Shown: one piece after another, positions 191-16,531 of the stretch
Layout: each line of letters starts with the position of its first letter
Position numbering within the stretch: the stretch's first letter is position 1
Source: an uncultured virus (IMG/VR IMGVR_UViG_3300044678_003135)
Taxonomy: Duplodnaviria; Heunggongvirae; Uroviricota; Caudoviricetes
Strand: one strand, 5' to 3'
Virus record (IMG/VR): IMGVR_UViG_3300044678_003135
DNA: 64,000 nucleotides
Program-made: the position numbers and the translations under genes
The notes under the pieces: generated by a model
The model's input: the letters and a program-made list of their open reading frames with translations, nothing else
The model's database searches: none
Told to the model about the DNA's origin: nothing

Positions 191-1432
191 ATGAGACACC
201 ACGGCTCGGTGGATTGTGCAGCCCTGCAACACCGGCTTGATGCCCTCAGGCGGAAATGCACCACCGGCTATGGGTGCGGATCGACCTGCATCAGCATCAA
301 GAAGGAGTGCCGGGTCAGTCCCGGCAGCTCGACTGGCAAGCAGCGCATGAAGCGGCTGCTGGCCCTGGCCGCGGGCGAGAAGGTGTCCCAGCAGCCGCGC
401 AGTGGCATCACGATCACGACTGATTCGGACGGAGGAGAGCCTCGACTCAATGGGCTCAAGCCAACACGCAGTCTTGGCAGTGGGGCATTTGGCAAGACCT
501 ACCAGTTCGACACAGAAGACGGGCCGGTGGTGGTGAAGGTCAACGGTCTCACGATGGGCGATCCTGCTGAGAGCAACCCAGGGGTGGGCCTGGCGGAGCA
601 GCGGGAAAACGTGGCTCGGCGAGAGTTCAAGAACCTGCAGCGGGCCCATGCGACCGGACTGGGCCCCGAACCCATCGGCAAGCTCACCCATCTGCCCGAT
701 GGCCGCTGGAGCCTGGCCTACCGAATGCTGCCGGGCTCAAAGCTCACTCCGTCTCACAACACAGTGGAGCTGACCTCTGAAGCTGCCACGTATCTGGCCG
801 ATCCCAAGGCCGCTGCCAGATACGTGGCTGGGGCGCTGCAACTGGCCCGCCGGCAGGCCGACACGGGTCTAATCCATGGCGACTTGCATGGCGGCAACGT
901 ACTGGTGGGCCCTGATGGCACCCCACGCCTGATCGACTGGGGACAGGTGCGCGAAAGCCGCAATCCATGGAATCAGGGCACCCGGAGCCCAGCAATGAAA
1001 GCAACAGACGAGGGCTATGCGCTCATTCCTCTTCTCAGCATGGCCGGACAGGCGCAGCGCCTGCCGGAAGCAGCCAAAGGCGTCTCTGAGCTTGTGGCCA
1101 TTGCCCGAGAAAAGGCAAGAGATGCAGAGATGGCATTCGGCCGCGTCATCGCAGCCCACGACTTGGCCTGGAAGGAAGCCAACGAAGAGAAAGTGGGAGC
1201 CAAGCTGGAGAAGGGTGAGTTCCGTCGGCGGATGGTGGAGGCCAACAGGCTCAAACGAGAGGAGGGGATGCCCTACGACATGGCTCTACGGGATCCCCGT
1301 GTCGGACTGGAGGCCCCCCTGACGCCAGAGGTGCTGGCCCGGGCCGCTGAGGCCCGTGACGCCATCTTTGGCCAGAGTGACCTCAATGAGATGCGGCGCG
1401 AGCTGGATCGCCGTTTTGGGGGCCGAGCATGA
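191..1432 (+). CDS. Protein kinase-like (Ser/Thr or APH-fold) protein with N-terminal Cys-rich module
   Basis: GSGAFG glycine loop, VVVK lysine, HGDLHGGN catalytic loop, IDWG; start set at ATG 191 just after the upstream stop. Confidence 0.85.
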   Translation: MRHHGSVDCAALQHRLDALRRKCTTGYGCGSTCISIKKECRVSPGSSTGKQRMKRLLALAAGEKVSQQPRSGITITTDSDGGEPRLNGLKPTRSLGSGAFGKTYQFDTEDGPVVVKVNGLTMGDPAESNPGVGLAEQRENVARREFKNLQRAHATGLGPEPIGKLTHLPDGRWSLAYRMLPGSKLTPSHNTVELTSEAATYLADPKAAARYVAGALQLARRQADTGLIHGDLHGGNVLVGPDGTPRLIDWGQVRESRNPWNQGTRSPAMKATDEGYALIPLLSMAGQAQRLPEAAKGVSELVAIAREKARDAEMAFGRVIAAHDLAWKEANEEKVGAKLEKGEFRRRMVEANRLKREEGMPYDMALRDPRVGLEAPLTPEVLARAAEARDAIFGQSDLNEMRRELDRRFGGRA

Positions 1433-1620
1433 GACAACCATTCCCCCGTCGCTTTCAGTTGCTTGCGGCTATGAATGAGGCCCGGGGGCGTGGCGACGTG
1501 GCGGCGTTCTACCGGCTGGAGGACGAGCACCTCCGCGAGCTCACCGGCCGGCCTGCTCTCACAACCAATGACAGCCTCCAGCGTCGCATCGACGCCCTGC
1601 GGGCGCGCTGTGGCCCCTGA
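1429..1620 (+). CDS. Small protein ending in NDSLQRRIDALRARC
   Basis: ATGA overlap with the kinase stop; abuts the MuF start; carries the shared helix motif. Confidence 0.7.
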   Translation: MRQPFPRRFQLLAAMNEARGRGDVAAFYRLEDEHLRELTGRPALTTNDSLQRRIDALRARCGP

Positions 1621-3006
1621 ATGGCTGACCGCTCCCTGGATCTGATCGAGCAGCTCGACCAGGAGCTGCGGGGCCTGGAGGACCAGCAGCTGCGGAAGCT
1701 CAAGGGCATCTTCGATGAGGCCCTGCGCCGCACCATCCGCAGCCTGATGGATCGCCTGGAGCGGATCGAGGCCCAGCCCGACTACGACCCGGCCACCACC
1801 CCCGGTGCCTTCCTGGGCTCCACCCCGGATGGCCCGGTGCCGATCACCCCGTTGCAGAAAGATCAGGCCAGCCTCTACCTGCAAGGCCAGCTGGCCCAGG
1901 ACCTGCAGGTGATCATCAACCGCTTCCCGGCCGATCGGGCAGCCAATGCAGCCCTGAACCGTGAGCTCACGGAGCTCTACAACCGGGCCCAAGATCTGGG
2001 GACTGAGTACGCCCTCGAGCTGTCGCGGGACATGCTCCCCCCGGCGGCCGTGCTCAGCAGCCGCCACCCCTCGCTGCAGGACCCCCAGCTGCCACCGGCG
2101 GCACCACCGGCCCCCACCGACGCCCCGGCCCCGGGCAGCCCCTACCAGGAGGGGCAGAGCTTCACCAGGCTCCTGAACCTGGGGGCCGTCATCGCCGCGT
2201 CTGAGCGGGACTTCAAGACCCTCAGCGCCGACTACCGCCGCCAGCGCAACGCCGCAACCTCCGATCGGGTCTGGGCAGCGAAGGACTATTTCTTCCGCTG
2301 GTGGCGCGACTGGGGCGATGCCGTGCAGTTCGAGACCGCCACTCAGATGGCCACCGGCGTCGACAGCCGCGCCCTGGCCCGCAACCTCAAGGCCCGCCTC
2401 CCCCACATCAACGATGCGTTTCGCAACCGGGCCGAGACCGTGGCCCGCACCGAGACCCACATCGCCGCCGGCGAGGCCAGAGAGCGCACCTTCCGCCGCA
2501 TCGGCGTTGGGTTCGTGCGGTACGTGGCCACCGCCGACGATCGGGTCTGCGAGTTCTGCGCACCCCGGATGGGGGCCCTCTATTACGCCGGCAGCGTCAA
2601 AACCCCCATCCATCCCAGATGCAGGTGTGCCCTTTCCCCGATCACCCTGGAGGCGCTGGTGATCCAGAACCAGTTGGCGGCCAACCGCGGCGAGCGCTGG
2701 GAGGATCAGCAGCAGGCACTGGCCGCGGGGACCCGCAGGAAGTACGACGAGGCCAGCACCAGGCCCTGGCGGCCAATCGGCGGCACCGGTGAACCCCGGG
2801 GCCCGCGGGACTACCCCCTGATGGAACGCACCGCCCTGCCGGCCACCACTCCAAGGCCCAACACCGAGAACAACCCCGCCAACGGTGGGGCCAGGCCCTG
2901 GCCATCGGGGGATCCGGTCTGGACCCCCTCCAGGGGCTGGATCAATGCCGCCGCTCGCGAGGCCTACGAGGCCATGGTCAATGAGGTGGCGGAGCTGGAG
3001 GTGTGA
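1621..3006 (+). CDS. Phage head morphogenesis protein (MuF / SPP1 gp7 family)
   Basis: RAETVARTE...ATADDRVCEFC...PIHPRCRC signature of the MuF domain. Confidence 0.9.
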   Translation: MADRSLDLIEQLDQELRGLEDQQLRKLKGIFDEALRRTIRSLMDRLERIEAQPDYDPATTPGAFLGSTPDGPVPITPLQKDQASLYLQGQLAQDLQVIINRFPADRAANAALNRELTELYNRAQDLGTEYALELSRDMLPPAAVLSSRHPSLQDPQLPPAAPPAPTDAPAPGSPYQEGQSFTRLLNLGAVIAASERDFKTLSADYRRQRNAATSDRVWAAKDYFFRWWRDWGDAVQFETATQMATGVDSRALARNLKARLPHINDAFRNRAETVARTETHIAAGEARERTFRRIGVGFVRYVATADDRVCEFCAPRMGALYYAGSVKTPIHPRCRCALSPITLEALVIQNQLAANRGERWEDQQQALAAGTRRKYDEASTRPWRPIGGTGEPRGPRDYPLMERTALPATTPRPNTENNPANGGARPWPSGDPVWTPSRGWINAAAREAYEAMVNEVAELEV

Positions 3007-3292
3007 CAGTCCTGATCTCGGCAGCGGCACCGAACGCTCGGCCGAACTCAGCAAAGGCGTTTTCCGCCTGCTTCACCGTTGCCAGGACCTGGTTCATCTG
3101 CTTGCCGACCGACCGAACAACTTCGGCGTAGCGCCGGATGCGTGCAGAGAACAGCTCCTCAGGCTTCGCAGGCCAGAACTTGTCCCACTGCATCTGGCCC
3201 CAGATGGTGCCGCCTTTGAAGGGGGCAGTGTTGGCCCAGTGGATGCGACCGATTCGGCCTCCGGTGCTGGTGAAGGAAATGAAGGTGACCAT
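2978..3292 (-). CDS. Hypothetical protein
   Basis: ATG ORF downstream of 3349-3837 on the same strand. Confidence 0.5.
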   Translation of the reverse strand: MVTFISFTSTGGRIGRIHWANTAPFKGGTIWGQMQWDKFWPAKPEELFSARIRRYAEVVRSVGKQMNQVLATVKQAENAFAEFGRAFGAAAEIRTVTPPAPPPH

Positions 3293-3348
3293 GGGAAGCG
3301 TGCGATGGGAAGGGGTGCCGGATGGGCTCCGGCGGGCCGTGGTGGTGC

Positions 3349-3837
3349 TCAGGCAACAAGGGCCTTGCGGACCTGGTAGCGGGTGAGCCCCAGTGTGCCG
3401 GCGATCTCCCGCTGGCTGCAGCCCTGAGCGGCGAGACGCCGGACCGAGGGCGGTGCGACGTTGGCGGAGGTGGTGACCGGAGCGGCATCTGGGGCCGGCA
3501 AAAGTTCGGCGCCGTTAGTGATAGCAACGGGTTTCGGCCCCACGGGGGTGGTGACCATTTCCGTGGCGCCAGGAAATTGGTCTGGAGCTGAACCTGTAAG
3601 CCTGGCTTTCAAGTTGCCCCCGGACAACCCCAGCCGGGCCAGGCCGTGGAGCTGGTGCTCCTGGGCCCAGGCCACCAGCTGATGCCAGCGCTCGCCGGCC
3701 ATGAAACCCAGCGTGTAGATCAGGGCCACCACCGCCCCCAGGCGGCGGGCAGCGGCATGGAGCGTCGGGCCCCAGTCGGAGGAAAGGCCCCTGGTGATGG
3801 TCTTCAGATCGGGAGCGGTGATGCAGATCGTGGTCAT
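3349..3837 (-). CDS. Membrane-anchored protein with C-terminal HTH
   Basis: Hydrophobic LGAVVALIYTLGFMAG; C-terminal RRLAAQGCSQREIAGTLGLTRYQVRKAL. Confidence 0.65.
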   Translation of the reverse strand: MTTICITAPDLKTITRGLSSDWGPTLHAAARRLGAVVALIYTLGFMAGERWHQLVAWAQEHQLHGLARLGLSGGNLKARLTGSAPDQFPGATEMVTTPVGPKPVAITNGAELLPAPDAAPVTTSANVAPPSVRRLAAQGCSQREIAGTLGLTRYQVRKALVA

Positions 3838-3941
3838 GGTTCGGTCCTATGAGGGTCCCGGCGGCTGCTCAGAGCCTGCTCAGGGTGGGTTGTAATGCGG
3901 TGCCAGCAGGGCCACTCAGGGCTCTTCTGCTGGATTTGATT

Positions 3942-4016
3942 GCCCCCTAACTGCTGGGGGCGGATCGGCCCGGTTTTGCGCCTATGGCCGGCTGGCGATC
4001 GGGTTGTCTCCCCCGA
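3942..4016 (-). ncRNA. Putative structured 5' leader RNA, copy 1
   Basis: Three predicted hairpins; sequence and layout shared with 61511-61574. Confidence 0.5.
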
Positions 4017-4113
4017 CGCCTGAACCGTACCACAGGCAGCGCTTATGAGACGGTATCTAAGGAAAACGTCGTCAAAGCGCTAGGCTCCGAAACCACTGCA
4101 CCGCAGCCTATCC

Positions 4114-5418
4114 ATGAAGCTCGGCTATGCCCGCGTCTCGAAGGAGGAGCAGGCCGACTCCCTGCCAGCTCAGGTGGCCAGGCTTCGGGCGGCCGGTTGT
4201 GATCGGATCGTGGAGGAGCTGGAGAGCGGTCGGAATGACGATCGCCCCGGCCTGGCGGAAGTGATCCTTGAGGTTCGCTCAGGCCGCGTGGCCGAGCTGG
4301 TGATCACCAGAGCCGATCGGCTGGGCCGCAACGCCGCCTTCGCCGATGAGCTGCTGGCCCTGTGCGGGATCCAAGGGGTCAAGGTCACGGCGATCGACGG
4401 CGGCACCATCGAAGCGGCGTCACCCCAGGGATTCATGCAAGCCCGGATCCTCACCACCATGGCCGAGGTGGAGTCGCGGATGCTGAGCCTGCGGCTGCGG
4501 CGGCAGTTTGAGCAGTACCGCTCCCAGGGCCGCCACCTACGGCGCCGGAAACCGTTTGGGTATCGAGGCGGTGCCAACCACAAGTTGGAGCCCCACCCGG
4601 AGCACTGGCCCCAAGCGTTGAAGGTGTTGGAGAGGTTGCGGCAGTTGGGGAGTTTCTCAGCGGTGATGAGAGAATTGCCGAGCTGGTGCGAGTGGACCCC
4701 GGCGAGCCCAAACCTGCAGGCTTGGTTCTACAACCCCTGCATCAGGGGGCACGTGGGCCACCTACTGCAGAAAGGCAGCGGGAAGAGCTGGAATCAGCAA
4801 TGGGGCGAGATCCACTACGACCAGCACCCGCCGCTGATCGGTGAGGCCGATTGGCAGGAGCTGGCGATGTATCTGCGGCGGCCCAGCAACACCTTTCTGG
4901 GTCGAGGCCGTGAAGCTCGCCATGGGTTGACCGGGTTGCTGAGCTGCGCGGCGTGCGGCCACAGCCTGCGCCGCAACAACTCGGGGAATACGGCGTGGTG
5001 GCGTTGCCGTCACCGGTTGTGCGAGGAGAAAGGCGCCATCCGGGAACCTGATGCCATGCCTCTGGCGGTGGCGGCGTGCGTGGCTGCTGCAGATCGCCTG
5101 GCGGCAGCGTATGCCATGCCCGCCGACGAGGATCCGGCGGTGGCGGCAAAGCGGCGGGATCTGGAGCAACTGGAGGGGCTGGCTAGGCGCAACCCGGCGA
5201 TTGCATCGGCGTGCGTTGCGTTGCGGACGGAGATTGCCAGCCTGATAGGACGGCCGAGGGTGGCACCTGAGTTGGCTGGCTATGCCGAGCGGATCAGCGA
5301 CCCTGAGTTTTTCGCGGGTGCGACACCAGAGGAGCAACGGGCGCTGTTTTCGGCGGTGCTGGAGACCCTGGCGGTGGGTCCAACGGGGGAAGTCCGCGCT
5401 CAGCCGCGTAGCTGGTAA
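4114..5418 (+). CDS. Large serine recombinase (integrase)
   Basis: YARVS catalytic motif, ESG...RPGL, DRLGR, recombinase domain and Zn ribbon LTGLLSCAACG...WRCRHRLC. Confidence 0.95.
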   Translation: MKLGYARVSKEEQADSLPAQVARLRAAGCDRIVEELESGRNDDRPGLAEVILEVRSGRVAELVITRADRLGRNAAFADELLALCGIQGVKVTAIDGGTIEAASPQGFMQARILTTMAEVESRMLSLRLRRQFEQYRSQGRHLRRRKPFGYRGGANHKLEPHPEHWPQALKVLERLRQLGSFSAVMRELPSWCEWTPASPNLQAWFYNPCIRGHVGHLLQKGSGKSWNQQWGEIHYDQHPPLIGEADWQELAMYLRRPSNTFLGRGREARHGLTGLLSCAACGHSLRRNNSGNTAWWRCRHRLCEEKGAIREPDAMPLAVAACVAAADRLAAAYAMPADEDPAVAAKRRDLEQLEGLARRNPAIASACVALRTEIASLIGRPRVAPELAGYAERISDPEFFAGATPEEQRALFSAVLETLAVGPTGEVRAQPRSW

Positions 5419-5445
5419 GGCGACTGGCGATGGCCTCGCGGAGGG

Positions 5446-5748
5446 TCATAGCTGCGTCCGGCCTTGATTGACGGCGCGGATCAGCTGCTCAGGGCATTGC
5501 CTGACGGCTTCGGCCACCATCAGCTGCTGAAACGACGGGTCGCGCATCTCTGCGGACCAGAGGTAGGCATTGTCCGAAAGCCCCACTCGCACGGCGGCGC
5601 GGATGGTCAGGTCGGCGCCCAGGGCCCGGCAGATCGAACCGGCCGTGGCCCAGGCCGCAGTGCCCACGCCGGCATGGGCTGGCGCCGCATGGCAGGCGCC
5701 GAGCGTCAGCAGGGCGGTGGTGATCGCAAAGCGGGAAAACGATGTCAT
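5446..5748 (-). CDS. Exported hypothetical protein
   Basis: Signal-peptide-like MTSFSRFAITTALLTLGACHAAPAHA. Confidence 0.6.
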   Translation of the reverse strand: MTSFSRFAITTALLTLGACHAAPAHAGVGTAAWATAGSICRALGADLTIRAAVRVGLSDNAYLWSAEMRDPSFQQLMVAEAVRQCPEQLIRAVNQGRTQL

Positions 5749-5797
5749 TGATCCGGGTCGGCTCAGGCCGGGGATGGTCGGATCATACCCCCACAGC

Positions 5798-5811
5798 CGA
5801 ACTGATGTATT
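5798..5811. promoter_or_regulatory. LexA-like box (1 mismatch)
   Basis: CGAAC-TGAT-GTATT in a divergent intergenic region. Confidence 0.45.
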
Positions 5812-5844
5812 GTTGTTACGCACTCACAACGTAGCGATCTCAAC

Positions 5845-6093
5845 ATGCCCACACTCCTTCTCCCCGTTCTGCCAAAGCCCGCCTCTCGGCCCCCTGCGCG
5901 GGTTCTACATCCCCAGTTCCGGGCCCGCCGCCCCAAACGATCAGCCCCTGCCCCTTGCTGCAATGCCGGCCTGATTGCCATCTGCCTATCTGGTGTGGCC
6001 CTGGTCGTGGCGCTGGTGGCTTTCTCGATCGTGCGGGACATTGCGGCGCTTAATGGGCCTGCACAGCCCCTGGCCGCGCCGCTTCGCCCGTGA
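5845..6093 (+). CDS. Small membrane protein
   Basis: Single hydrophobic segment LIAICLSGVALVVALVAFSIV. Confidence 0.4.
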   Translation: MPTLLLPVLPKPASRPPARVLHPQFRARRPKRSAPAPCCNAGLIAICLSGVALVVALVAFSIVRDIAALNGPAQPLAAPLRP

Positions 6094-6177
6094 GCTGCGG
6101 CCCCCATGGCAAGGCCCGGTTTTGGCATTGCCAACCAGGGCCATGCCTACCATGAGGGCGATCCAGAGTCGCCATCC

Positions 6178-6471
6178 ATGAACCGTAACGAATGCGCCTA
6201 CGCCGCCCAGCACTTCCTGGCCTTCCTGAAGCAGGTTGGCCCGATCGAGGCGGCATGGGCTATGAACACGGTTCTCGAAACGCTGATGGAGCTGCCTCCA
6301 GGCAATGACCACGTGGCCGCGGCAGAGACGGCCCTTAAAGAGTCGCTGGCGGAGTTTGATGAGCTGGCCCAGGTTGCCAGCAGCGAGCCAGCAGACGGTG
6401 GTGGAGAAGCGCTGCTGGCTGAAGGACTCACACCAGAGCCCACCGCCAAGAAATCCGGCAAGGCCAGCTGA
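6178..6471 (+). CDS. Hypothetical acidic protein
   Basis: ATG ORF with phage-like codon usage leading into the fibre cluster. Confidence 0.55.
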   Translation: MNRNECAYAAQHFLAFLKQVGPIEAAWAMNTVLETLMELPPGNDHVAAAETALKESLAEFDELAQVASSEPADGGGEALLAEGLTPEPTAKKSGKAS

Positions 6472-6508
6472 TTGTGAGGCCTAGCCTGACGCCAGCTGCC
6501 CGCCAGCT

Positions 6509-6862
6509 ATGACACAGCCGCAAATCCTCACGCTCAGCGCGGTCTATGAAGGCACGACGTGGGAAGGAATTAACTCGGTAACGCTGGAGCAGCCGGCCGG
6601 GATCCCGCTGGACCTGACCAATGCGCAGCCGCGCATGGTCTACCGGCGAGTCGGTGAGAACCTGGAGAGGTTGAATCTTGTCGTTGGCGCTGGGATTCAG
6701 ATCACCAATGCCGCAGGTGGCATTTTCCGAATTAACCCGCAAATCCTGCCACTGACGGCAGGAAGCTACTACTGGGAGATCATCCTCACGCAAGCCAACG
6801 GAACGATCATCCCGCTTTTCGCAGGAACACAGGAAATCACCAGGCTTGGGAGGGCGTCGTAA
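6509..6862 (+). CDS. Virion structural adaptor-like beta protein
   Basis: PLDLTNA...GIQITNAAGG...AGSYYWEI pattern typical of phage Ig-like/BppU-like proteins. Confidence 0.6.
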   Translation: MTQPQILTLSAVYEGTTWEGINSVTLEQPAGIPLDLTNAQPRMVYRRVGENLERLNLVVGAGIQITNAAGGIFRINPQILPLTAGSYYWEIILTQANGTIIPLFAGTQEITRLGRAS

Positions 6863-6864
6863 CA

Positions 6865-8205
6865 GTGGATATAACGGCAGTTGTTGTACTGAACGAGACC
6901 CCCCTCCAGGCCACGGTGAACCCGCCGCCTGGGCAAGGCGGTGCGGGCGACGTCGGATCTGGGACCGTGACCAGCGTGGGCCTAGTTGTCCCGACGGGAT
7001 TCTCAGTGAGCGGCTCGCCAGTGACGGTGAGCGGCAACATCACCCTGTCGTTTGCCGCTGGATACAGCCTGCCCTCCAACACCAGCCAGGCCAACTGGGA
7101 CACCGCCTTCAGCGAGCGGCTCCGCTGGGACGGCAGCAGTACGGGGCTGAATGCAGCGACCGCCCGCACCACCCTGGAGCTGGGCACTGCGGCCTTAACC
7201 GCCGCAACCGATTACGCCACGGCAGCGCAGGGAACCAAAGCCGACACGGCGGTTCAACCGGCAGCGCTCACCGCAAAAGCCGACTTGGTGGGCGGCGTGG
7301 TGCCCACCAGCCAGATCCCGGCGGTTGCGGTGGTTCAATACCTTGGCCAAGCGGCCAACCAGTCCGCAATGCTCGCCCTTCGCGGGGAAGGCGGTGACTG
7401 GTGCATCCGAACTGACTCCTACACGGAATGGGTGATCGTCGCCAATAACGGCGCCTCCCTGGCGGACTGGATCCAGCTCCCCACTGGCATTGCACCGGTC
7501 AGCTCGATCAACGGGCAGACCGGCGCTGTCACGCTGGGAACAGGCGACCTTGGCGAGAGCGGCGGCAACCTGTTCTTCACGGCCGCCCGAGCGATCGGCG
7601 CGGCGCTGACCGGATTCACCTCAGGGGCCGGGACCGTTGGCGCGTCGGACTCGATTTTGCAGGCACTGCAGAAGGTCGTCGGGAACATCGCAGAAAGGGC
7701 CTTGGGCGGCCTGATCGGCTCCAGCGGTTTGACCATGGCCACCAACCGCATTGCCGGCCGCGGCACGGCAGGAGTGGGGGCGGTCGAGGAGATCACCCCA
7801 GCCGGCGGGCTTTCGATTCAGAGTGGCAACCTTGTAATGACCGAGGGCATAGTCCTCACCATTTCAAACAATGGGGAAACTGCGGTCCCTCGTAATAACT
7901 ACGAAGAGAAAGCCGTAGATCGGGCTTGCACAGTAATAGGTGTGACTTTTGAATTAAACCCAACAACTGTATCAACCAGCGGCAGCAGCCAGGTGATGCT
8001 GTTTGCCCGCCGCAGTGGGACAAAGACCAATCTTTTGAGCGCCAACGCATCCCTGCCCGTGACCACTGGTATTTATACAAATGTGAGCGGCACCCTCACG
8101 GGCAACCTGACCCTTGTGGCCGGGGATACCGTAGGGGGCGACCTAATCCAGGTCGGCACAGGGGCCACCGGCCTCAAGCTCACTGTTTACGTTCGTTACT
8201 CCTAA
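6865..8205 (+). CDS. Fibre-like virion structural protein
   Basis: Gly/Ala/Thr-rich; GTVTSVGL, DYATAAQGTKADTAVQP, VSSINGQTGAVTL fibre motifs. Confidence 0.75.
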   Translation: MDITAVVVLNETPLQATVNPPPGQGGAGDVGSGTVTSVGLVVPTGFSVSGSPVTVSGNITLSFAAGYSLPSNTSQANWDTAFSERLRWDGSSTGLNAATARTTLELGTAALTAATDYATAAQGTKADTAVQPAALTAKADLVGGVVPTSQIPAVAVVQYLGQAANQSAMLALRGEGGDWCIRTDSYTEWVIVANNGASLADWIQLPTGIAPVSSINGQTGAVTLGTGDLGESGGNLFFTAARAIGAALTGFTSGAGTVGASDSILQALQKVVGNIAERALGGLIGSSGLTMATNRIAGRGTAGVGAVEEITPAGGLSIQSGNLVMTEGIVLTISNNGETAVPRNNYEEKAVDRACTVIGVTFELNPTTVSTSGSSQVMLFARRSGTKTNLLSANASLPVTTGIYTNVSGTLTGNLTLVAGDTVGGDLIQVGTGATGLKLTVYVRYS

Positions 8206-8210
8206 ACACC

Positions 8211-8876
8211 ATGACCCCCATGACCCCCACAGCAACAAATCCCACCACTGGAATTGAGTATTACACCTCAGGACCATTGGATGGCAAAAGCGTTGCCTTG
8301 TTTGTTAATGTAAGCAACGGCAACATTAACAACCCACGCGGTGATCACTGGCCCACCGGCAACGGTGGCGTTCACGATTTCAGCGAAGAATTTTACGAAT
8401 ATGTGCCGTTCGAGGGAGCGCCCTTTGACTCCGAGCTTAGGTTTGTTGATTCCGAAAACAGTGGCCGCTTTCTAAAGCCAGCCGTACCCAAGCCACCAAC
8501 CGGCCACCCTCAGGGGACCTACGAGGAGACCCGTGTGCTCAAGCGGCGCAGTAAAGCTGAGCTGAAAACTTTGGCTAGGGGGTACTGGGAATCTAACAAC
8601 CGTGCGCTTTGGCCGCAAGAGCTTGGATATAATGAAAAATTGGCTTATGCTGAAAAACAGATAGCGGCGCAAAACGATTTGCCTGAATTTATAGCCCTTG
8701 TGGAACGCCACGAAAAACTTCTGGCTGCATCGTTTCATAACGATAGAAGACTAGCTGTAATTTACGCTGCGATTGAAGAGGCTGGGGAAACCGGCAACAT
8801 TGACGATTGGCCCTTTAGCAAAATGCAGGACAACAGTGAAAGCGCTACGGGCTGGGTCAATGGAATTGAGGAGTAA
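8211..8876 (+). CDS. Hypothetical protein, possible fibre chaperone
   Basis: Directly follows the fibre gene; lower GC. Confidence 0.65.
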   Translation: MTPMTPTATNPTTGIEYYTSGPLDGKSVALFVNVSNGNINNPRGDHWPTGNGGVHDFSEEFYEYVPFEGAPFDSELRFVDSENSGRFLKPAVPKPPTGHPQGTYEETRVLKRRSKAELKTLARGYWESNNRALWPQELGYNEKLAYAEKQIAAQNDLPEFIALVERHEKLLAASFHNDRRLAVIYAAIEEAGETGNIDDWPFSKMQDNSESATGWVNGIEE

Positions 8877-8943
8877 TGAACAACGCCTTCCGCCGCCCTG
8901 GATTTCCCCTGCCGCTGGCTCGCCAGATCGGAGGTTGCCAAAA

Positions 8944-9810
8944 GTGATTTACACTTCTAGGCGGCGGGCGCCAACTTTATGGACCCCAACCCAAACTGCC
9001 ACCGAGCTATGGCTTACGCCGTATGACACGGCCACAACTACGATTGCGACAGGGGTATCCCAGATCCGGGACAAGAAGCTGGGGCTTGAGCGCGTTTTCG
9101 ACCAAGCGACTGGCGGGGCTCAGCCAACCATGGGGAATCCGTTAAATGGCAAAAACGGACTAACATTTAACGGAAGCCAATGGCTGACTTCTTCCAGTTC
9201 GGCAGCAACGTGGAATTTTCTGCATACCGCAGCGGGCGCGGGCGCAACTATCGTAGCCGTGTGGAGAGCCGGAAACACCGCAGATCCCAACGCTCTATAC
9301 GGACTACTGGGGAACAACGCCGGGGCGTCAGCCAACCACGGCTTTTCTGTGTTTTTTGATGACAGAGCCCCTGTTGGCCGCAATCTAAGAGCTGGCGCGT
9401 TAATAACAAGAGGAGTAGGCAGCCAAGATGCAGCTGTCAACCTATCAGGGGACAACGCGCACCCGGCTAACACTCCTGTAATTATCACGCATATTGGTGA
9501 CCCCAGCAACGCAACACCTGCGAACAGGTCAATAATTACAGTCAACGGCGGGGCGGAAATTAAAAACAACTCACTCACAAACGCCCCATCTTCGGCAAAT
9601 GCGTCCTTTCTGTTGGATCTCGGGACGCTGGGCAATGGCGCGTCTCGACTCGTAGGCGTTATATGGGAAATCGTCATTCTGCCCCCTGGCACTAGCCTCG
9701 CCACCGTTCAGTTGGTCCAGGGTTATCTTGCCGGCCCGGTCGCCGGATGGAATCTGCAGAGCCTCCTCCCCGTAGGGCACCCCTACAAATCTGCCGCGCC
9801 AACTGGGTAG
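8944..9810 (+). CDS. LamG/concanavalin-like virion protein
   Basis: LWTP...LWL start, NGKNGLTFNGSQWL, GVIWEIVI...VQGYLA..W....LP.GHPYK ending; GTG start inferred. Confidence 0.65.
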   Translation: MIYTSRRRAPTLWTPTQTATELWLTPYDTATTTIATGVSQIRDKKLGLERVFDQATGGAQPTMGNPLNGKNGLTFNGSQWLTSSSSAATWNFLHTAAGAGATIVAVWRAGNTADPNALYGLLGNNAGASANHGFSVFFDDRAPVGRNLRAGALITRGVGSQDAAVNLSGDNAHPANTPVIITHIGDPSNATPANRSIITVNGGAEIKNNSLTNAPSSANASFLLDLGTLGNGASRLVGVIWEIVILPPGTSLATVQLVQGYLAGPVAGWNLQSLLPVGHPYKSAAPTG

Positions 9811-9846
9811 CCCGGCGGCCAACCGTCCCTATCACCATGCCCATAC

Positions 9847-10131
9847 TTGATTCAGAACGCTGCTGGCCCTGTGGATCGACGAACTGAAATGGTGCAGCTG
9901 GCCACTGAGCTGCTGAGTGAACAGATCCGACCGGTGCAGATCGTGTCGATCTCCGATGCCGGTGGTGAGCCCCAAGGTGAGTTCGTATCGAACCGGCAGC
10001 GCTTCATCTTCAGGTTCACCAAGGGCGGCATGGTCACCTATAAGCCCAAGGGCCAAGGTGGCGGCGGCCGGGAGGATAGCGATCTCCAGGCCCGGATTGA
10101 GCGCATCAAAACCCGTCTCGGAGCATCGTGA
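9847..10131 (+). CDS. Small head-module protein, paralogous to the N-terminal domain of 10577-14812
   Basis: Ends REDSDLQARIERIKTRL; shared FRF...G.V.Y.P segment. Confidence 0.65.
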   Translation: MIQNAAGPVDRRTEMVQLATELLSEQIRPVQIVSISDAGGEPQGEFVSNRQRFIFRFTKGGMVTYKPKGQGGGGREDSDLQARIERIKTRLGAS

Positions 10132-10580: not shown

Positions 10581-13500
10581 GCCGTCACCAGTCCCTGCTG
10601 GATCGCCTTTCGGCCATTGAGGCTCAGTTTTCCGTGGCCCGCGTCAACAAGGCCCTGGCCCAGCGCCCCGTGGCCCTGCGGCACGACGCCGCCGATCGGG
10701 TCTCCCCGGTGCTGCAGCAGCTGCTGGCCGAGGTGCTCCCCGGCGCCCTGGTGCTCGACTGGCGGCAGGACGGTGCTGCCCATGCCGGGCGGATGGCCGC
10801 CGATGGCCTGGTCTACCGGTTCCGTGTCGATGCGGAAGGCGTTGGCTATCGCCCCGCATGGGAGGGGGTGCTGCAGCGTGGTTGGGAGCTGCGATCGGAT
10901 TCGTTTCTGCAGCTGCGGGCCCCTGTCGCCCGGATGGACTTCCGCCGCACCAGGGCCGGCGGTGGCCAGAAGCGGAAATGCGCCACCGGCTACGGCTGCG
11001 GCAACGCCTGCATCTCCCTCCAGAAGGAGTGCCGGATCGCCCCCCGTTCAGCGATCGGAAAGGGCCGCCTGCGGCGCCTCCAGCAGCTGGCTGCCGCCGG
11101 CAACCAATCAGCTGGCAAAACCGCCAGCCAGGCGCAGGCCTCCCGCGGGGCGGCCGCGGCGGCTCTGCAGAAGGACCGCACCACCCAGCGGGTGCAGAAG
11201 CTGCTCGAGCGGCCGGAGATCGCCGAGTTCCTGCGCACCGGCAAGCTCCCCGCCTCGGCCAACAGCTCCACGGAGCCCGGCACCGTCCGGGAGATGAAGC
11301 CAGGGGAGCTCGCCTTCGATCCCTCCCGCTTCCAGTACAAGATCAATGCCACCGCCACCACCGGCGAGGTGGGCAGCCTGTCGGGGGTGCGCAAGTGGGA
11401 CCCGAACCTTTCCGGCGTGATGTCGGTCTGGAAGGACCCGGCCGACGACAAGGTCTATGTGGTCAACGGGCACAACCGCCTGGCCCTGGCCAACCGCCTG
11501 GGGGCGGAGGCCGTCACCGTGCGCTTCCTCAATGCCGCCACCGCCACCGAGGCCCGGGCAATCGGGGCCCTGCAGAACATCGCCGAAGGGGCCGGCTCCC
11601 CGATGGATGCGGCCAAGTTCTTCCGCGACACCGGCATCAAGAGCCAGCAGGACGTGGAGGCCCGGGGCCTGCCCCTGGGCAGCGGCCAGGCATCCAAGGG
11701 GCTGAGCCTCAGCAAGCTCCCCGGCGACGTGTTCAACGCTGTGGTGCGGGGTGACCTGACGGTGAACCGCGGGGCGATCATTGGCGGCAGTGGCCTCGAT
11801 GACGCCAAGCAGCGGGAGGTGTTCAAGATGATCGGCTCCCGCAAAGCCATCACCGATCAGACCCTGCAGGAGCTGGTGGAGCATGCCGCTGCCAGCTCCC
11901 AACGCACCCAGACCACGATGGATCTCTTCGGAATGAGCCAGGAGGCCAAAGACAACCTGTTCACCCGGGCCAAGCTCTCCGCCGGCCTGAAGGCCAAGAT
12001 CGCCCGGGAGAAGCGCCTCTTCTCCACCGTCAGCAAGGCCAAGGCCGCCACCAGCCTGACCGAGAAGGGGGGGAACGTGATCAACCAGGAGCAGAGCGCC
12101 AAGGTGGCCGGCGAGGCCAGCGAGGCCCTGGGGGTGTTTGAGCGGCTGAAGAGCGCCTCTGGCCCGATCAGTTCCGCCCTCAACCGTGCCGCCGATCGGG
12201 TGGAGGCCGGCGAGGCCGAGGCCACGGTGCGGAAGGAGCTGGAGCGGGATGTCTTCGAGGCGGTGCAGGCTGAGCTGGAAGCGGTGGGGCTGCGCAAGCG
12301 GCCCCGGGCCGACAGCCTGCAGGAACGGATCGATGCCCTGCGGAAGCAATGCAGCACCGGCTATGGCTGCGGGTCGGCTTGCATCAGCTTGCGGAAGGAA
12401 TGTCGCACCACTCCCCGCAGCGCCATCGGGAAGGAGCGCATGAAGCGGCTGCTGGCCCTGGCCCAAGGCGAAATCAAGCCCAAGGGGATAGGTGTGCCTA
12501 AAGCAGCCGAAGCGGCCACCATGGCGGCTGATCTGCAGGGTCGGCGCACCGGCCAAGCTCAGGAGCTGCGATTCCAGCGCCAGGCTGCTCGTCGAGCCAA
12601 GGCTGCTCAAGAGAAACAAACCAATCCCTACCGGCCAACTCCGCAACTTAAGGAGATCGTCACCTTAAAGCCAATGAGCATCGCTGCAGGAGGCGATACA
12701 AACTACGATCCAGCAGTAGAGAAAAGAAAAGCAGCGGGTGGCCTGAAGTATTACCGCACCCAGCGTGGAGGAGCCACCAAGCAAAACTACTTTTTCCGGG
12801 ATCGCCAGGCAGCAGAGCACTGGTACGCAGACCACAACGCTAAAAGTGACGCGGATGCCGAGGAGGGCACCAATAATCGCCGTGGCAACGAGTGGCAGGC
12901 CGAGTACAAGGCCTCCTATGTGGGCAATCGAAACCTTCTGCGAGACACCAGCGACCGCGAAGTGCTGGAGACAGTTGAGTCCTTTGCAGCTGCCGGCACA
13001 GCAACAAGAGGGGGGACCGCAACAGACGTGCGCATCGGTGGCAACAAGCATTCCAGGCCGATTCGAGAGGGCACGTTTGCAAATGGGAACGCATCAGAAG
13101 GCTCACCCCAGCCGGTGCTGACCAACCCCGGCCGCCAGGATCCCGGCCTGGCACCCAAGGCCAAGGAGCAGGGCCTAAACGCCCAGGACGTGACCACCAG
13201 CAAGCAACAGGCCGCCTTCGCCCGGCAGCAGCAGCAGGCCGCCCAGGCCGCCGGGGATCAATCCGGGGCTCAGGCCTGGCGGAAGGAAGAGAGGGCGGTG
13301 GAGCGCGGCCGGCTGGCCACGGCCATCAGCAGCAACAAGCAGAGCCAGAGATCGCTGTTTGGGGTGACCGAATACGACGAAACCATGCCGCTGTTCAAGG
13401 AACAGCCCGCCAGCACCCCCAGCACCGGCGGCAGCCTGGCCGTCCAGTCCGGCGGTGGAGCAGCCGCCCGGCCCACGACGACGGCCCCTGCCTCCAAACC

Positions 13501-14812
13501 CGGCAGCGTCACAGAAGCCCTCAGGCAAACCCTGGGGGCCCTGAAGGCCGCCGACATCCGGCAGATGGGGATGATCGCTGAGCAGCTCTTCGAGGCCGGC
13601 TGGACAATCGACCGCCGCACCCGCTACCGGGGCATGAGCAAGGACCAGGCCCGGGACAAGTTCAAGGCCGAGTTTGCCCAGAAGATGCAGGCCCAGGCCA
13701 GCTCCCCGGAAGCCGCCGCCCGATCCGCGGCAATGCGCAACCGTGCCGGCGCCTCCGGAACGGTCTCTGGTGCCCTGAAGAGCGTGCTCGAAGACATGAA
13801 GGCCCAGGACCAGCGGCTGAACGATCTCCAGCGGCAGACGATCGAGCTGCGCCTGAAGGCAGAGGAACAGTTCGGTGGTGAAGGTGGCGAAGACCCATCG
13901 CTGGGTGGTGGCCGGCCGCGGCGGCGCCTCGGCGGCGGCCGGCGGGATGCTGACATCCTCGAAGCCCGGATCGATGCCCTGCGCCGGAAGTGCAGCACTG
14001 GCTATGGCTGCGGATCCAGCTGCATCTCGATGAGCAAGCAGTGCCGCAAGACCCCCGGAGCCGGCCCCGGCCAGCAGAAGATGCAGCGCATCCTCGCCCT
14101 GGCGGCGCCGGGAAATGCAACGCCGGCCAAGTCGCCGTCTCCGGCAGTGGCGCCTTCACCAAGGCAAACGGCAAGAAGAACCCCGAAGACAGACCCCGAG
14201 AACCTGCTGGACATGCAGAAAAGAGGGCAGGAAAGCCGCGCCAGAATTGCCAAGATCCGCAGCACTGACGAGCAAGCAATAGCGAGAGAAGCCAAGAAGC
14301 TTGGCTTGAGCGATGCGCACCTTGGCGCACTCAGCAATTACACGGCGGATGATAAATATACAGCCATAAACCACTACATGAGAACTGGTAAGGCTAAAAC
14401 GCAATACGATCAGAACTTTAACGAATCCAGAGACAGCGCGGCCATGCTGAAAGATGCGCTGACAAAGCTCCCCGAATACAGGGGGGATACCTTCCGGGGG
14501 ATTGCCATTCCGACGGCAGACGCGGAAAGGATGTTCAAGGTTGGTGGGGTCTTTCGGGACAAGGCCTTTCAGAGCACAAGCAGAGATGAAACGGTTGCAA
14601 AACACTTTGCAGCCGGGGGAGTTACATCTTCAAAAATCACAGCGGTTATTATCACCTACAAAGCGGGGCACGGCGGCCGAGATGTATCCAAGCTATCAGA
14701 GCGAGCGGATGAGCAAGAGGTTATTGTCGGTCCACCGGCAAAGTTCAGGGTGCTATCCGTAACCCCTGGTCCCAAAGGAAAAGGACTGCAGGTTACAGTG
14801 GAACGAATATGA
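10577..14812 (+). CDS. Large multidomain (polyvalent) protein: ParB/Srx-like domain, three Cys-rich modules, C-terminal ADP-ribosyltransferase
   Basis: YVVNGHNRL (ParB-like); YT...Y..IN..., FRG, FQSTS, EQE (R-S-E class ART). Confidence 0.88.
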   Translation: MSRHQSLLDRLSAIEAQFSVARVNKALAQRPVALRHDAADRVSPVLQQLLAEVLPGALVLDWRQDGAAHAGRMAADGLVYRFRVDAEGVGYRPAWEGVLQRGWELRSDSFLQLRAPVARMDFRRTRAGGGQKRKCATGYGCGNACISLQKECRIAPRSAIGKGRLRRLQQLAAAGNQSAGKTASQAQASRGAAAAALQKDRTTQRVQKLLERPEIAEFLRTGKLPASANSSTEPGTVREMKPGELAFDPSRFQYKINATATTGEVGSLSGVRKWDPNLSGVMSVWKDPADDKVYVVNGHNRLALANRLGAEAVTVRFLNAATATEARAIGALQNIAEGAGSPMDAAKFFRDTGIKSQQDVEARGLPLGSGQASKGLSLSKLPGDVFNAVVRGDLTVNRGAIIGGSGLDDAKQREVFKMIGSRKAITDQTLQELVEHAAASSQRTQTTMDLFGMSQEAKDNLFTRAKLSAGLKAKIAREKRLFSTVSKAKAATSLTEKGGNVINQEQSAKVAGEASEALGVFERLKSASGPISSALNRAADRVEAGEAEATVRKELERDVFEAVQAELEAVGLRKRPRADSLQERIDALRKQCSTGYGCGSACISLRKECRTTPRSAIGKERMKRLLALAQGEIKPKGIGVPKAAEAATMAADLQGRRTGQAQELRFQRQAARRAKAAQEKQTNPYRPTPQLKEIVTLKPMSIAAGGDTNYDPAVEKRKAAGGLKYYRTQRGGATKQNYFFRDRQAAEHWYADHNAKSDADAEEGTNNRRGNEWQAEYKASYVGNRNLLRDTSDREVLETVESFAAAGTATRGGTATDVRIGGNKHSRPIREGTFANGNASEGSPQPVLTNPGRQDPGLAPKAKEQGLNAQDVTTSKQQAAFARQQQQAAQAAGDQSGAQAWRKEERAVERGRLATAISSNKQSQRSLFGVTEYDETMPLFKEQPASTPSTGGSLAVQSGGGAAARPTTTAPASKPGSVTEALRQTLGALKAADIRQMGMIAEQLFEAGWTIDRRTRYRGMSKDQARDKFKAEFAQKMQAQASSPEAAARSAAMRNRAGASGTVSGALKSVLEDMKAQDQRLNDLQRQTIELRLKAEEQFGGEGGEDPSLGGGRPRRRLGGGRRDADILEARIDALRRKCSTGYGCGSSCISMSKQCRKTPGAGPGQQKMQRILALAAPGNATPAKSPSPAVAPSPRQTARRTPKTDPENLLDMQKRGQESRARIAKIRSTDEQAIAREAKKLGLSDAHLGALSNYTADDKYTAINHYMRTGKAKTQYDQNFNESRDSAAMLKDALTKLPEYRGDTFRGIAIPTADAERMFKVGGVFRDKAFQSTSRDETVAKHFAAGGVTSSKITAVIITYKAGHGGRDVSKLSERADEQEVIVGPPAKFRVLSVTPGPKGKGLQVTVERI
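12315..12463 (+). repeat. 149-bp direct repeat, copy 1 (encodes the Cys module)
   Basis: Matches 15106-15254 with 4 mismatches by manual comparison. Confidence 0.9.
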
Positions 14813-15006
14813 CTATGAATGCGATGACGGGATCAAGCAAACCTGGCAAAGGCAAAGGGCTTCAAGGCCGAATGCAGGACATTGGTTTTGAGTTTGCAGA
14901 CCCGGAGGGGCAATTCCCCGCCGATCAAAAGGATGCCGAGAGCCAGGCAGCTGAACCCACTGGCTCTACAAAGAAACTGCCATCGTCCACAACGCCTCGC
15001 CGATGA
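14809..15006 (+). CDS. Small protein downstream of the ART domain (immunity candidate)
   Basis: ATGA overlaps at both ends; lower GC like the ART domain. Confidence 0.55.
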   Translation: MTMNAMTGSSKPGKGKGLQGRMQDIGFEFADPEGQFPADQKDAESQAAEPTGSTKKLPSSTTPRR

Positions 15007-15701
15007 CGCCTTTCAGCCCTGCCAGCAGCAATCCCTCAGCCCGCCGCCCCGACGCTGCCCCCATCGACTGGGCCAACGTGGCCGTGGAAACCACCGTGAT
15101 GCTCCGCCTGCAGGAACGGATCGATGCCCTGCGGAAGCAATGCAGCACCGGCTATGGCTGCGGGTCGGCTTGCATCAGCCTGCGGAAGGAATGTCGCACC
15201 ACTCCTCGCAGCGCCATCGGGAAGGAGCGGCTGAAGCGGCTGCTGGCCCTGGCCGGCGGTGGCAAGGTGGCCCAGCGGGGGATCGCACCGGTGCGGGGGA
15301 AGGATGCCGGTGAGCTGGCCGGTGGCATTGCCGCTCGCCGTGGTGAGCTAGCATCCCGGCTGCGCGGAACACGCCAGCAGGCCGAGGTTTCAAGGATGAA
15401 AGCCTATCGCAGGATTTCCGCGTCAGGCCAGGACTTGGCCCGTAGGTGGGCAAGAGCCGGCGAGGCTGCGCGTAGGCGCGGAATAGATAGTTATGCGGGA
15501 CCGCCAAACCGGAAAAAGGCTGAGCGGGCCGCAACGGTAGACGCAGCTGCTCGCGCCTTTAGAGGGGCCATGGCTGGAGCGCCGGGATTGCGATACAGAA
15601 ACGCAATGTCGCAACAAGATACTCAACAGAGAGCCGAAAAAGCATTTAGAGCTCGGCCAAGGTTTAGCACAAGGCAAAGAGTAAAAAAGGGCTGGAGCTA
15701 A
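15003..15701 (+). CDS. Cys-module protein with Arg/Ala-rich basic C-terminus
   Basis: IDWANVAVETTVMLRLQERIDALRKQCSTGYGCGSACISLRKECR. Confidence 0.75.
   Translation: MTPFSPASSNPSARRPDAAPIDWANVAVETTVMLRLQERIDALRKQCSTGYGCGSACISLRKECRTTPRSAIGKERLKRLLALAGGGKVAQRGIAPVRGKDAGELAGGIAARRGELASRLRGTRQQAEVSRMKAYRRISASGQDLARRWARAGEAARRRGIDSYAGPPNRKKAERAATVDAAARAFRGAMAGAPGLRYRNAMSQQDTQQRAEKAFRARPRFSTRQRVKKGWS
15106..15254 (+). repeat. 149-bp direct repeat, copy 2
   Basis: Matches 12315-12463. Confidence 0.9.
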
Positions 15702-15789
15702 CTCATGCCCACCCCCTGATTGAGCACAACGAGAACTTTTCTGCGATTCGCGCGGCAAAGAAAGCGGAAGGACGCTAAACACTAAGGCG

Positions 15790-16011
15790 TCAGGCCTGGG
15801 ATTCTGGCAAACTGCGTGTTTTCCTTTTGCGGGCTGCGTCTGCAGCCTTGCCTTCAGGGGTTTTCTTTCCACACATGGAGCAAAGAGGAAGAAAAAACTG
15901 ACCCCAAGCTTTCCGTCCACACCGTGGGCAGACCGGACAAGGAGGGGCGTCACCATCAACTCGAGCGCGAAACCGTTTTACTCTCTCCCTGGAAGTGTCA
16001 GGCATCGTCAA
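15790..16011 (-). CDS. Small C4 zinc-finger protein
   Basis: CPRCGR...LCSMC; paralogue at 62671-62880. Confidence 0.7.
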   Translation of the reverse strand: MTMPDTSRERVKRFRARVDGDAPPCPVCPRCGRKAWGQFFLPLCSMCGKKTPEGKAADAARKRKTRSLPESQA

Positions 16012-16186
16012 TCTCCACCATGGCGGGCCAGTTGGGCATTAGGGGGTCGTAGGCAGCTTCAAGGGCCTGGCGCAGCTCGGCGCGGGTGACGCGGATCGTG
16101 CCACCATCGGCGCCCCATTCGTGAAAGTGGCCACCGAGGTGCGTGCGGGCCAGAACGTCGTCAACGGTGGGGATGGGCTGGGTCAT
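15998..16186 (-). CDS. Hypothetical protein
   Basis: ATG ORF overlapping the Zn-finger gene start. Confidence 0.55.
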   Translation of the reverse strand: MTQPIPTVDDVLARTHLGGHFHEWGADGGTIRVTRAELRQALEAAYDPLMPNWPAMVEIDDA

Positions 16187-16381
16187 GGTGGGGGTGGTGC
16201 GGTGGGATGAATTGCCGGGCTGTGGCGCCCGGCGGGGGGGGGCAGGCGGCCAGCGGTGAGCACTGGGGCATCCGAACTGTAACGACTGGTGGACACAGCC
16301 GACGGCATGGGCCGAGCCAGTTGATCATCCGTAACAAGTGGCGGAATCTCTAGCCTGTTCCTGATGCCCCGATCCACGACT

Positions 16382-16531
16382 ATGCCCACCCCCGCCACCT
16401 CCGAAGCCCCCCGCAGCGATGGCAAGGCCATCGACTGGGCCAACGTGGCCGTGGAGGTCACCGTGATGCTGCGCTTGCAGGAGGCCCCACCAGTGGCCGC
16501 GGCACGGGGCAAGCGCACCAAGGTCAGCTGA
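16382..16531 (+). CDS. 49-aa peptide paralogous to the N-terminus of 15003-15701 (not in the ORF track)
   Basis: MPTPATSEAPRSDGKAIDWANVAVEVTVMLRLQEAPPVAAARGKRTKVS. Confidence 0.65.
   Translation: MPTPATSEAPRSDGKAIDWANVAVEVTVMLRLQEAPPVAAARGKRTKVS

Follow-up and report, generated by a model that had tools for sequence, protein, structure and literature searches.

A proposed four-cysteine leader behind a probable head-protease site on diverse cargo proteins of an uncultured, presumed cyanobacterial, phage

A cysteine-rich module recurs in a 64,000-nucleotide stretch of DNA from an uncultured member of the Caudoviricetes (IMG/VR record IMGVR_UViG_3300044678_003135; the whole stretch is called the window here, and positions are window coordinates), where it heads a protein kinase, a ParB-like domain, a domain of unknown family, an ADP-ribosyltransferase (ART) and a basic tail. 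It is moderately probable that this module is the mature N-terminal leader of internal cargo released by the head protease and, at the same time, a cassette by which cargo is swapped. The repeated unit would have three parts: a head-protease site R-x-D, a basic linker and a four-Cys hairpin of ~20 residues, usually followed by an amphipathic helix. The tag lies directly behind a probable protease site, and as tagged proteins are present in purified particles of relatives, it probably helps to load or deliver the cargo. What appears to be new here is the tag itself, its tie to published virion proteomes, a switch in the motif that precedes it and the covariation of its presumed disulfides.

An earlier note, made from the letters alone, had reported five copies, each heading a gene of its own. 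All five first-Cys coordinates (257, 10979, 12350, 13991 and 15141) are confirmed. However, copies 2–4 share a single open reading frame (ORF) of 1,411 aa, so that there are three genes and not five. The core pattern of the five is C-x5-CG-x2-CI-x5-C, and they form one 149-nt repeat family with 61–100% identity to the reference copy; 18 of 57 columns are invariant (C, T, GYGCG, CIS, K, CR, P, G, R and LA), and a loose module pattern occurs in 0 of 100 block-shuffled windows versus five times in the window. A sixth full copy heads a gene whose last 62 codons are window 1–189, as seen in the near-identical contig L011. The features that carry the argument, like all those listed further on, are on the + strand.

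191..1432 (+), module-led protein kinase (APH/RIO-like), isoelectric point (pI) 9.5; Pfam APH E 3e-9, RIO1 3e-7
233..376 (+), cassette 1: R-L-D-A site (233), basic linker, four-Cys module (257-313), amphipathic helix
10577..14812 (+), 1,411-aa polyprotein: four R-x-D in its leader, followed by three units that each begin with the module
10931..11098 (+), cassette 2: R-M-D-F site, basic linker, module (10979-11035), helix
11240..12310 (+), ParB/Srx-like cargo (VNGHNRL at 11462) and helical tail; phrog_21 E 1e-50
12305..12469 (+), cassette 3: R-A-D-S and R-I-D-A sites, module (12350-12406), helix
12470..13954 (+), cargo 3: unknown domain and low-complexity basic segments
13940..14110 (+), cassette 4: R-R-D-A and R-I-D-A sites, module (13991-14047), helix
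14240..14761 (+), R-S-E (ExE) ART cargo; Pfam ART E 6e-10, ADPrib_exo_Tox 6e-9
15003..15701 (+), cassette 5 (R-I-D-A 15117, module 15141-15197) and a very basic tail, pI 11.6
16835..18151 (+), DUF2213 head-maturation protease/scaffold; Pfam DUF2213 E 6e-39; phrog_530
18811..19743 (+), major capsid protein (PF09950), R-L-D at residues 4-6

The kinase, ParB-type and R-S-E ART identities proposed for the cargo stood up, their catalytic motifs being intact: GSGAFG, VVVKV, HGDLHGGN and IDWG at 476, 527, 875 and 932 in the kinase, and R...STS...ExE at 14477, 14567 and 14705 in the ART. The third domain, described as low in GC, is only mildly so (0.57–0.60 versus ~0.68), the value for the ART, 0.51, being lower. 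The units of the window are all markedly basic (pI 9.5–11.6), those of the polyprotein being of ~49, 59 and 30 kDa with a pI of ~10 each.

The earlier note overlooked what appears to be a protease site: R-x-D stands 5 to 13 residues upstream of every window module, and with such a site ahead of every copy the long ORF would be a cleavable polyprotein. The LQxRIDAL helix that precedes the module in the other four copies is missing from copy 2, yet R-x-D is kept there (RMDF, 10931). Counted within 22 aa upstream of the module, R-x-D is ahead of 86 of 109 modules in 43 polyproteins, versus 151 of 2,322 background windows (6.5%); it is ahead of 3 of 81 modules in secreted proteins and of 12 of 89 in the remaining ones. 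The modal gap is five residues. The hairpin, being C-terminal to the site, would stay on the cargo after cutting, and the linker between the two has a net positive charge in 213 of 229 cases. R.D is also the top gapped pair in 11 DUF2213 protease/scaffold proteins (109 versus 32.7 expected), with 14 R-x-D versus 3.0 expected in the window protein, and R-x-D is found near the capsid N-terminus in the window and in the cultured phages PaV-LD and CL131. These counts mark R-x-D as the probable cut site of the DUF2213 protease, and cleavage of the cargo proteins there is likely.

The TLS capsid protein has the Edman N-terminus ASDMGIW, for which its authors surmised the site AYE (PMC11447400, PMC10052503). 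That sequence maps directly after K-N-D at residue 28 (L368:7088-7330), not after AYE, and the TLS genome encodes DUF2213 and PF09950. The proteases of T4 (PMC9026906) and SPN3US (PMC11447400, PMC10052503) cut after similar three-residue motifs.

The motif upstream of the module appears to follow the protease, with R-x-D accompanying DUF2213 and [DE]-F/Y accompanying a different protease, of the type in the cultured phage S-CBWM1. The comparison was of 52 hand-picked loci, one per contig and many of them fragments, of which 51 were searched: 14 of 17 R-x-D records had DUF2213 (the three misses are 7–48% complete) and none the S-CBWM1-type protease, while among the 34 other records none had DUF2213 and 16 had the S-CBWM1-type protease. 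F.E is enriched in the latter protease (74 versus 26.8). In nine Mu-portal fusions, 11 of 11 modules come after [LIVM]-[DE]-[FY]-[RKAN] versus 0 of 305 background windows, the motif having been defined on these same sequences. A second, unrelated two-Cys hairpin, C-x-R-[PA]-D-G-x-x-Y-G-T-x-G-x-C-[RK]-K-G, occupies the same slot in other genomes, though not in the window (carriers are L369:21654, which is the S-CBWM1 NMNAT, L059:18142, L044:8202, L051:12290, L054:8912, L099, L136, L150 and L157). It has R-x-D ahead of it in 10 of 10 DUF2213-type cases and [YL]-[DE]-F-T in 8 of 8 S-CBWM1-type cases.

Evidence that module-bearing proteins are in virions comes from cultured relatives. Among 50,697 phage records a cargo-type module is present in PaV-LD (7 genes), CL131 (4 genes, 8 modules) and S-CBWM1 (4 genes); weak matches went to portals of Microbacterium phages (E 3) and to Pinkberry virus (E 1). 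Since the cultured phages found with it are cyanophages only, we infer a cyanobacterium as host. In CsCl-purified CL131 particles, 23 of 149 proteins were detected with LC-MS/MS, in which liquid chromatography is coupled to tandem mass spectrometry (PMC6293099, Table S5), and all four module-bearing proteins, ORF044, ORF045, ORF047 and ORF048, are among the 23 in that table. Per 100 aa, ORF045 gave 27.2 spectra versus 27.7 for the capsid protein, and five-module ORF048 gave 9.7 versus 7.7 for the portal. ORF045 consists of an acidic leader, R-Q-D-A, the module and an Ala/Lys-rich tail, a design like that of window copy 5. For PaV-LD there are GenBank labels only, ORF081R being termed a virion structural protein and ORF085R a minor virion protein. 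The virion loading proposed for the window proteins is supported by CL131, presence in virions being known for relatives only. That cassette proteins are virion-borne can be held with high confidence.

S-CBWM1 virions are reported to contain APH, ChoK and Rio2 kinases and an NMNAT-like protein (PMC10665884, citing Xu 2018). The genome encodes four protein kinases, of which the APH-, ChoK- and RIO-like begin with the module 4–5 residues after Met; the PknB-like kinase is without it and is not among the kinases named as virion-associated in the available text. The NMNAT also lacks the four-Cys module and begins with L-D-F-T-R and a hairpin of the second type. GenBank starts the ChoK-like (L059:14989-15867) and RIO-like (L061:15360-16322) kinases downstream of the module, and an in-frame ATG is directly before the module in both. 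Such start calls may explain why it was overlooked.

The events envisaged would begin late in infection, when cassette-bearing proteins would co-assemble into the prohead, presumably in its interior. The DUF2213 protease would cut after R-x-D, for which TLS is the precedent, and so turn a polyprotein into separate basic units, each beginning with linker and hairpin. The hairpin leader would be a common handle for bringing cargo into the head or holding it there, and for leading it out along with the DNA; this leader would most likely bind something common to unrelated heads (DNA or an internal protein core) and not one capsid protein. In the host, kinase, ART and ParB-like units would, from what is known of their families, modify host targets early. 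Injection of the cargo into the cell is fairly probable, and a need for the hairpin in loading or retention is favoured with modest confidence.

Three settings place the module at what is presumably the mature N-terminus: behind R-x-D, behind the motif of the other protease, and a few residues past Met. It is used with unrelated heads, those of DUF2213/PF09950 and those of S-CBWM1 type. That its users span unrelated families of capsid and scaffold speaks against a single specific partner in the capsid, and the proposal in the earlier note of capsid or portal binding is further weakened by the portal fusions, which need no loading label. The presumed role of MuF is to keep cargo with the DNA or core and to lead it out. 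The ParB-like cargo of the window is in other phages fused to MuF or to a Mu-type portal; the module follows the portal fusions, while the MuF fusions are without it, which suggests that it does MuF's presumed job. That it can suffice for loading is suggested by the S-CBWM1 kinases, which have no propeptide. The same kinases bear on an alternative that is unlikely, in which labour is divided as in T4: the removable propeptide ending in R-x-D (LQxRIDA helix or acidic leader) would be the capsid-targeting signal, and the hairpin would act only after the cut, as a DNA tether, an ejection leader or an aid to crossing the envelope. The T4 targeting sequence is indeed a cleaved 10-residue propeptide (PMC9026906), there are helix-only ORFs in the window (1429–1620 and 9847–10131), and in the nine Mu-portal fusions the cargo is already on a head protein, yet 11 of 11 modules follow a site-like motif. 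However, the S-CBWM1 kinases, reported in virions (PMC10665884), and many relatives start M-x(2-4)-Cys without any propeptide, and the leaders upstream of R-x-D are unconserved between the window, PaV-LD and CL131.

The earlier note called the module probably zinc-bound, which is now doubtful. In a four-Cys zinc finger or ribbon all four Cys are jointly required, usually as CxxC pairs. Here the spacing is C-x5-C-x3-C-x6-C and the four are not jointly required. When distinct copies were anchored on C2 and C4, with the third position limited to C, W, F or Y, 523 had both C1 and C3, 63 had neither and none had just one; the 63 two-Cys variants have W, F or Y in place of C3. This joint loss of C1 and C3, together with the secreted homologues, makes disulfides C1–C3 and C2–C4 likely in preference to zinc. 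The two-Cys form, G-x-x-C-G-x-x-[WFY]-I-x5-C, is found in the same polyproteins as the four-Cys form (P0004, P0077, P0107, L022, L051, L054 and others). The AlphaFold2 model from 43 aligned copies is a short hairpin and a helix (predicted local distance difference test, pLDDT, 71.6; predicted template-modelling score, pTM, 0.34). No fold match was found for it among 48,161 chains, the model being too small to imply a new fold; the best sequence match in the PDB had E 0.8, and the ESM Atlas gave no usable match to the window module and, for a secreted homologue, unnamed clusters under 0.9. The 2-cysteine adaptor and basic adaptor domains of nucleocytoplasmic large DNA viruses, which we take to be a functional analogy only, gave no Pfam match at E <= 0.1 on the module-bearing window proteins.

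A bolder version of the leader reading is tentative, and on balance doubtful. It would make the module part of a portable, protease-unmasked ‘pilot’ grammar across unrelated cyanophage heads, in which a 40-residue element alone loads any fused protein and leads it into the cyanobacterial cytoplasm. The element would consist of a site for the phage's own protease, a basic linker and a small disulfide hairpin, of which there are at least two unrelated types; oxidised in the free virion and reduced in the cell, it would act as a redox lock and release.

As the earlier note surmised, the module is unnamed: it has no Pfam or NCBIfam match, its only PHROG matches are to phrog_33618 (unknown) and phrog_16619 (minor head protein), and a search of the literature outside subscription papers found no description of it. 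A profile from 43 copies matched 1,603 clusters at E <= 0.001, phage and cellular together. The best 150 of these comprise 43 polyproteins (at least 600 aa and at least two modules), 41 short proteins with a hydrophobic N-terminus and 66 that are neither, and from this split the family evidently consists of two populations: a phage one that heads cargo and a cellular one of small secreted proteins. Among the cellular genome-contig loci listed with a full module, at least 81, 77 were classed as secreted-type by script and the other four by eye. The tie to head modules holds for part of the family, the Cys core being widespread outside phages, among the small proteins that bacteria secrete. In the examined flank, a head or packaging gene was present at 51 of 56 close loci, at 24 of the 44 distant ones of phage type and, in viral contigs, at 1 of 23 loci of cellular type. 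A low-sensitivity search of 401 cyanobacterial genomes gave two weak profile matches and two pattern matches; one is secreted-type and the rest look like chance or a pseudogene.

The secreted CxxGKxCGxxCI proteins have an identical four-Cys core, often just past the signal-peptide cut or in tandem. They differ in having a signal peptide and often four extra Cys, R-x-D in just 3 of 81, no enzyme cargo of the phage kind, and head genes nearby in the single case of the 23. This apparently unnamed family (L215-L334; P0042, P0084, P0003), with a four- or eight-Cys core, is spread over many phyla and sometimes joined to YHYH, SNase or SH3 domains. Separately, P0093, P0095, P0117 and L144 are basic proteins that lack a signal peptide and carry tandem modules immediately behind Met; they may belong to other virus groups.

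That cellular homologues are signal-peptide proteins, together with Cys covariation that fits disulfides, invites the thought that the module sits on the exterior as a domain for adhesion or decoration, stabilised by disulfides, with cargo displayed on the surface or acting on the host envelope. Many cargos being lipase/cutinase-like or LRAT-like would suit this, and mass spectrometry gives no localisation. Nevertheless it is improbable. Kinase, ART, zeta-toxin-like and ParB-like cargos need, from family knowledge, ATP, NAD or DNA, and the motif upstream of the module is the same as that repeated in the internal protease/scaffold. Portal C-termini face the capsid interior.

The diversity of cargo in relatives supports the view that the module is reusable and heads interchangeable enzymes. 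A scan of 94 cargo segments matched kinases, R-S-E ARTs, a PARP-like ART, LPD1, zincins, DnaJ, HNH, alpha/beta hydrolases, GNAT and zeta toxin, with many segments giving no match; further module-bearing proteins have LRAT-like, PI-kinase-like or InPase domains. In CL131 ORF048 (L058:11182-16617), P0006, P0007 and P0013, cargos join hydrophobic helices to lipase/cutinase-like or LRAT-like domains, which suggests action on host membranes. The window ParB-like domain has 225 homologues, one called ParB-like in its source record; it has no Pfam match, the ddrB-ParB model included, and its single-sequence fold prediction is of low confidence (pLDDT 44). A CL131 portal considered as a carrier of the same domain was rejected, the match being only E 1.8. 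Cargo 3 has no Pfam or NCBIfam match, and its part 12620–13000 has 12 homologues, mostly in related polyproteins.

Swapping is seen on comparing orthologues. Those 82–95% identical over the ParB-like part mostly cease to align within ~100 residues past the start of the second module, and in two of them the ParB-like part is joined straight to the ART, so that cassette 3 is the main junction for cargo swaps. Copy 5, with 96.6% nt identity to copy 3, is evidently its recent duplicate; the stretch 15116–16429 that contains it is absent from contig L001 (99.6% identical), and contig L002 aligns with the window up to 13983, immediately ahead of copy 4, and again from 16386. The orthologue comparison shows cassette DNA to be the crossover point for exchange, duplication and deletion of cargo. 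Could the module then be no more than a conserved spacer and recombination box without a targeting role, loading being due to the basic charge of the cargo only? The mapping of swaps, deletions and duplications to the cassette and the strong basicity of all window units are in its favour, but it is very improbable: the four Cys are invariant across copies just ~20–35% identical, and their strict paired loss and the use of the module at true N-termini in distant phages point to selection on a folded structure.

Several points weigh against the leader function preferred here. The Cys core is, by its sequence matches, abundant in secreted cellular proteins (the at least 81 genome-contig loci). 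Among the 44 distant loci of phage type, just 24 have a head or packaging gene in the examined flank, the S-CBWM1 copies are scattered in the genome, and 23 of 109 polyprotein modules have no R-x-D. The same ParB-like cargo occurs in MuF fusions without the module, which is therefore not the sole route. The apparent link of motif to protease comes from few lineages and hand-picked, often fragmentary, records, and the putative [DE]-F/Y motif was defined on the sequences where it was counted. For CL131 the finding of four out of four is less striking since 17 of 20 genes of the block (ORF030-049) were detected, and LC-MS/MS cannot place proteins inside or outside the virion. The S-CBWM1 virion evidence is second-hand (PMC10665884).

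Among the closest known systems are T4 IPI-III and Alt (PMC9026906), with a short N-terminal element common to unrelated basic cargo, prohead-protease processing at a P3-x-acid motif and an Arg-specific ART among the cargo. The T4 signal is cut off, however, whereas the window element is folded, comes after the site and stays on the cargo; window units are chained in polyproteins, and the heads are DUF2213/PF09950 or S-CBWM1-type and not gp21/gp23. Basic, diverse cargo is known from virions of relatives only (CL131, 4 of 4). Polyvalent proteins (Iyer et al. 2017, PMC5512222; PMC9503650) are likewise multi-effector polypeptides in a late-gene context, predicted to be packaged and injected, and the domain pool is held in common: LPD1, zincin peptidase, ART-PolyVal, InPase and ParB-like. 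The window polyprotein has ParB-like, unknown and ART parts in one polypeptide upstream of protease and capsid. Of the polyvalent hallmark domains, LPD1 is upstream (in L011), zincin, ART-PolyVal (below cut-off) and InPase are in relatives, and none is in the window polyprotein; its ART is of R-S-E type and its ParB-like domain misses the ddrB-ParB model. In the available descriptions of polyvalent proteins there is no repeated Cys leader or R-x-D punctuation (PMC5512222; PMC9503650).

Effectors fused to MuF or portal, the former presumably those called polymorphic MuF toxins, share the head-module location and the ParB-like cargo. In the window MuF stands alone, and cargo genes without a MuF domain carry the 40-residue cassette. 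TLS and SPN3US processing also involves cutting after a three-residue motif ending in an acidic residue, and TLS shares its protease and capsid families with the window; the parts available mention no Cys-led cargo (PMC11447400, PMC10052503). For S-CBWM1, whose APH/ChoK/RIO-like virion kinases carry the module, the available text mentions no loading signal (PMC10665884). The system would thus work like T4 internal proteins and draw on the polyvalent domain pool, but it lacks what defines the T4 targeting sequence and MuF toxins.

Outside T4, the way in which phages select the non-structural proteins that they pack and inject is little understood. The tag is a mutable 40-residue candidate with three cultured carriers, CL131, PaV-LD and S-CBWM1, and for two of these published virion proteomes include tagged proteins; it offers an explanation for kinases in cyanophage particles. 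As a search handle, it marks unknown domains as probable early effectors, and it allows the cutting rule of the DUF2213 proteases, a large family, to be tested on a further case. Should the tag suffice for loading, it would be a tool for delivering proteins to cyanobacteria.

The window is the bulk of a circular phage genome of ~69 kb. Contig L011 bridges its ends, with 99.7% identity to 59761–63511 and 100% to 1–5702, and between the matched ends it has the portal and a module-LPD1 gene, whose complete 727-aa frame has the module at its start and LPD1. The remaining features of the region are as follows.

1..189 (+), upstream module-LPD1 gene, last 62 codons; closes with an R-x-D helix plus truncated module (RIDG at 157)
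1429..1620 (+), 63-aa ORF with a C-terminal R-x-D helix plus a single Cys; either a relic or a cassette of the helix only
1621..3006 (+), stand-alone MuF minor head protein, 0 R-x-D; Pfam Phage_Mu_F
9847..10131 (+), 94-aa ORF with R-E-D-S and an LQxRI-type helix at its end; no Cys module
15038..15115 (+), 78-nt direct repeat copy A, 81% to copy B, abuts cassette 5
16364..16531 (+), 55-aa ORF containing repeat copy B (16405-16482)
18192..18755 (+), capsid cement protein (Pam3 gp6 / E217 gp24 type)

No enzyme fused to the window MuF was detected, Phage_Mu_F being its sole Pfam match, and no immunity gene was identified next to the cargo: the small ORFs after the kinase (1429–1620) and after the ART (14809–15006) gave no family match in Pfam and PHROG scans. 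In the relative P0156, the peptide of the 55-aa ORF at 16364–16531 is directly after a module. The best solved relative of the window capsid protein is PDB 8hdt. The placing of the cassette genes in the head module stands insofar as they are between portal and protease, though a serine recombinase and tail/virion-protein genes (4114–9810) are interspersed. The recombinase (4114–5418), within the head region, is large, with resolvase and zinc ribbon domains; the phage may be temperate, or this may be an inserted element. The tail/virion-type genes (PHROG minor tail or virion structural protein) are at 6509–9810, between MuF and the polyprotein. Elsewhere in the window are a KilA-N gene among tail genes (23668–24690), a 1,602-aa tail-region protein with an M23 peptidase domain, probably the tape measure (26306–31114), and a stand-alone ParB-like gene 5′ of terminase (56817–57494). 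Three G/C-rich repeats of ~37 nt (51656–51765) within a replication-initiator gene (51167–52582) are possible origin iterons.

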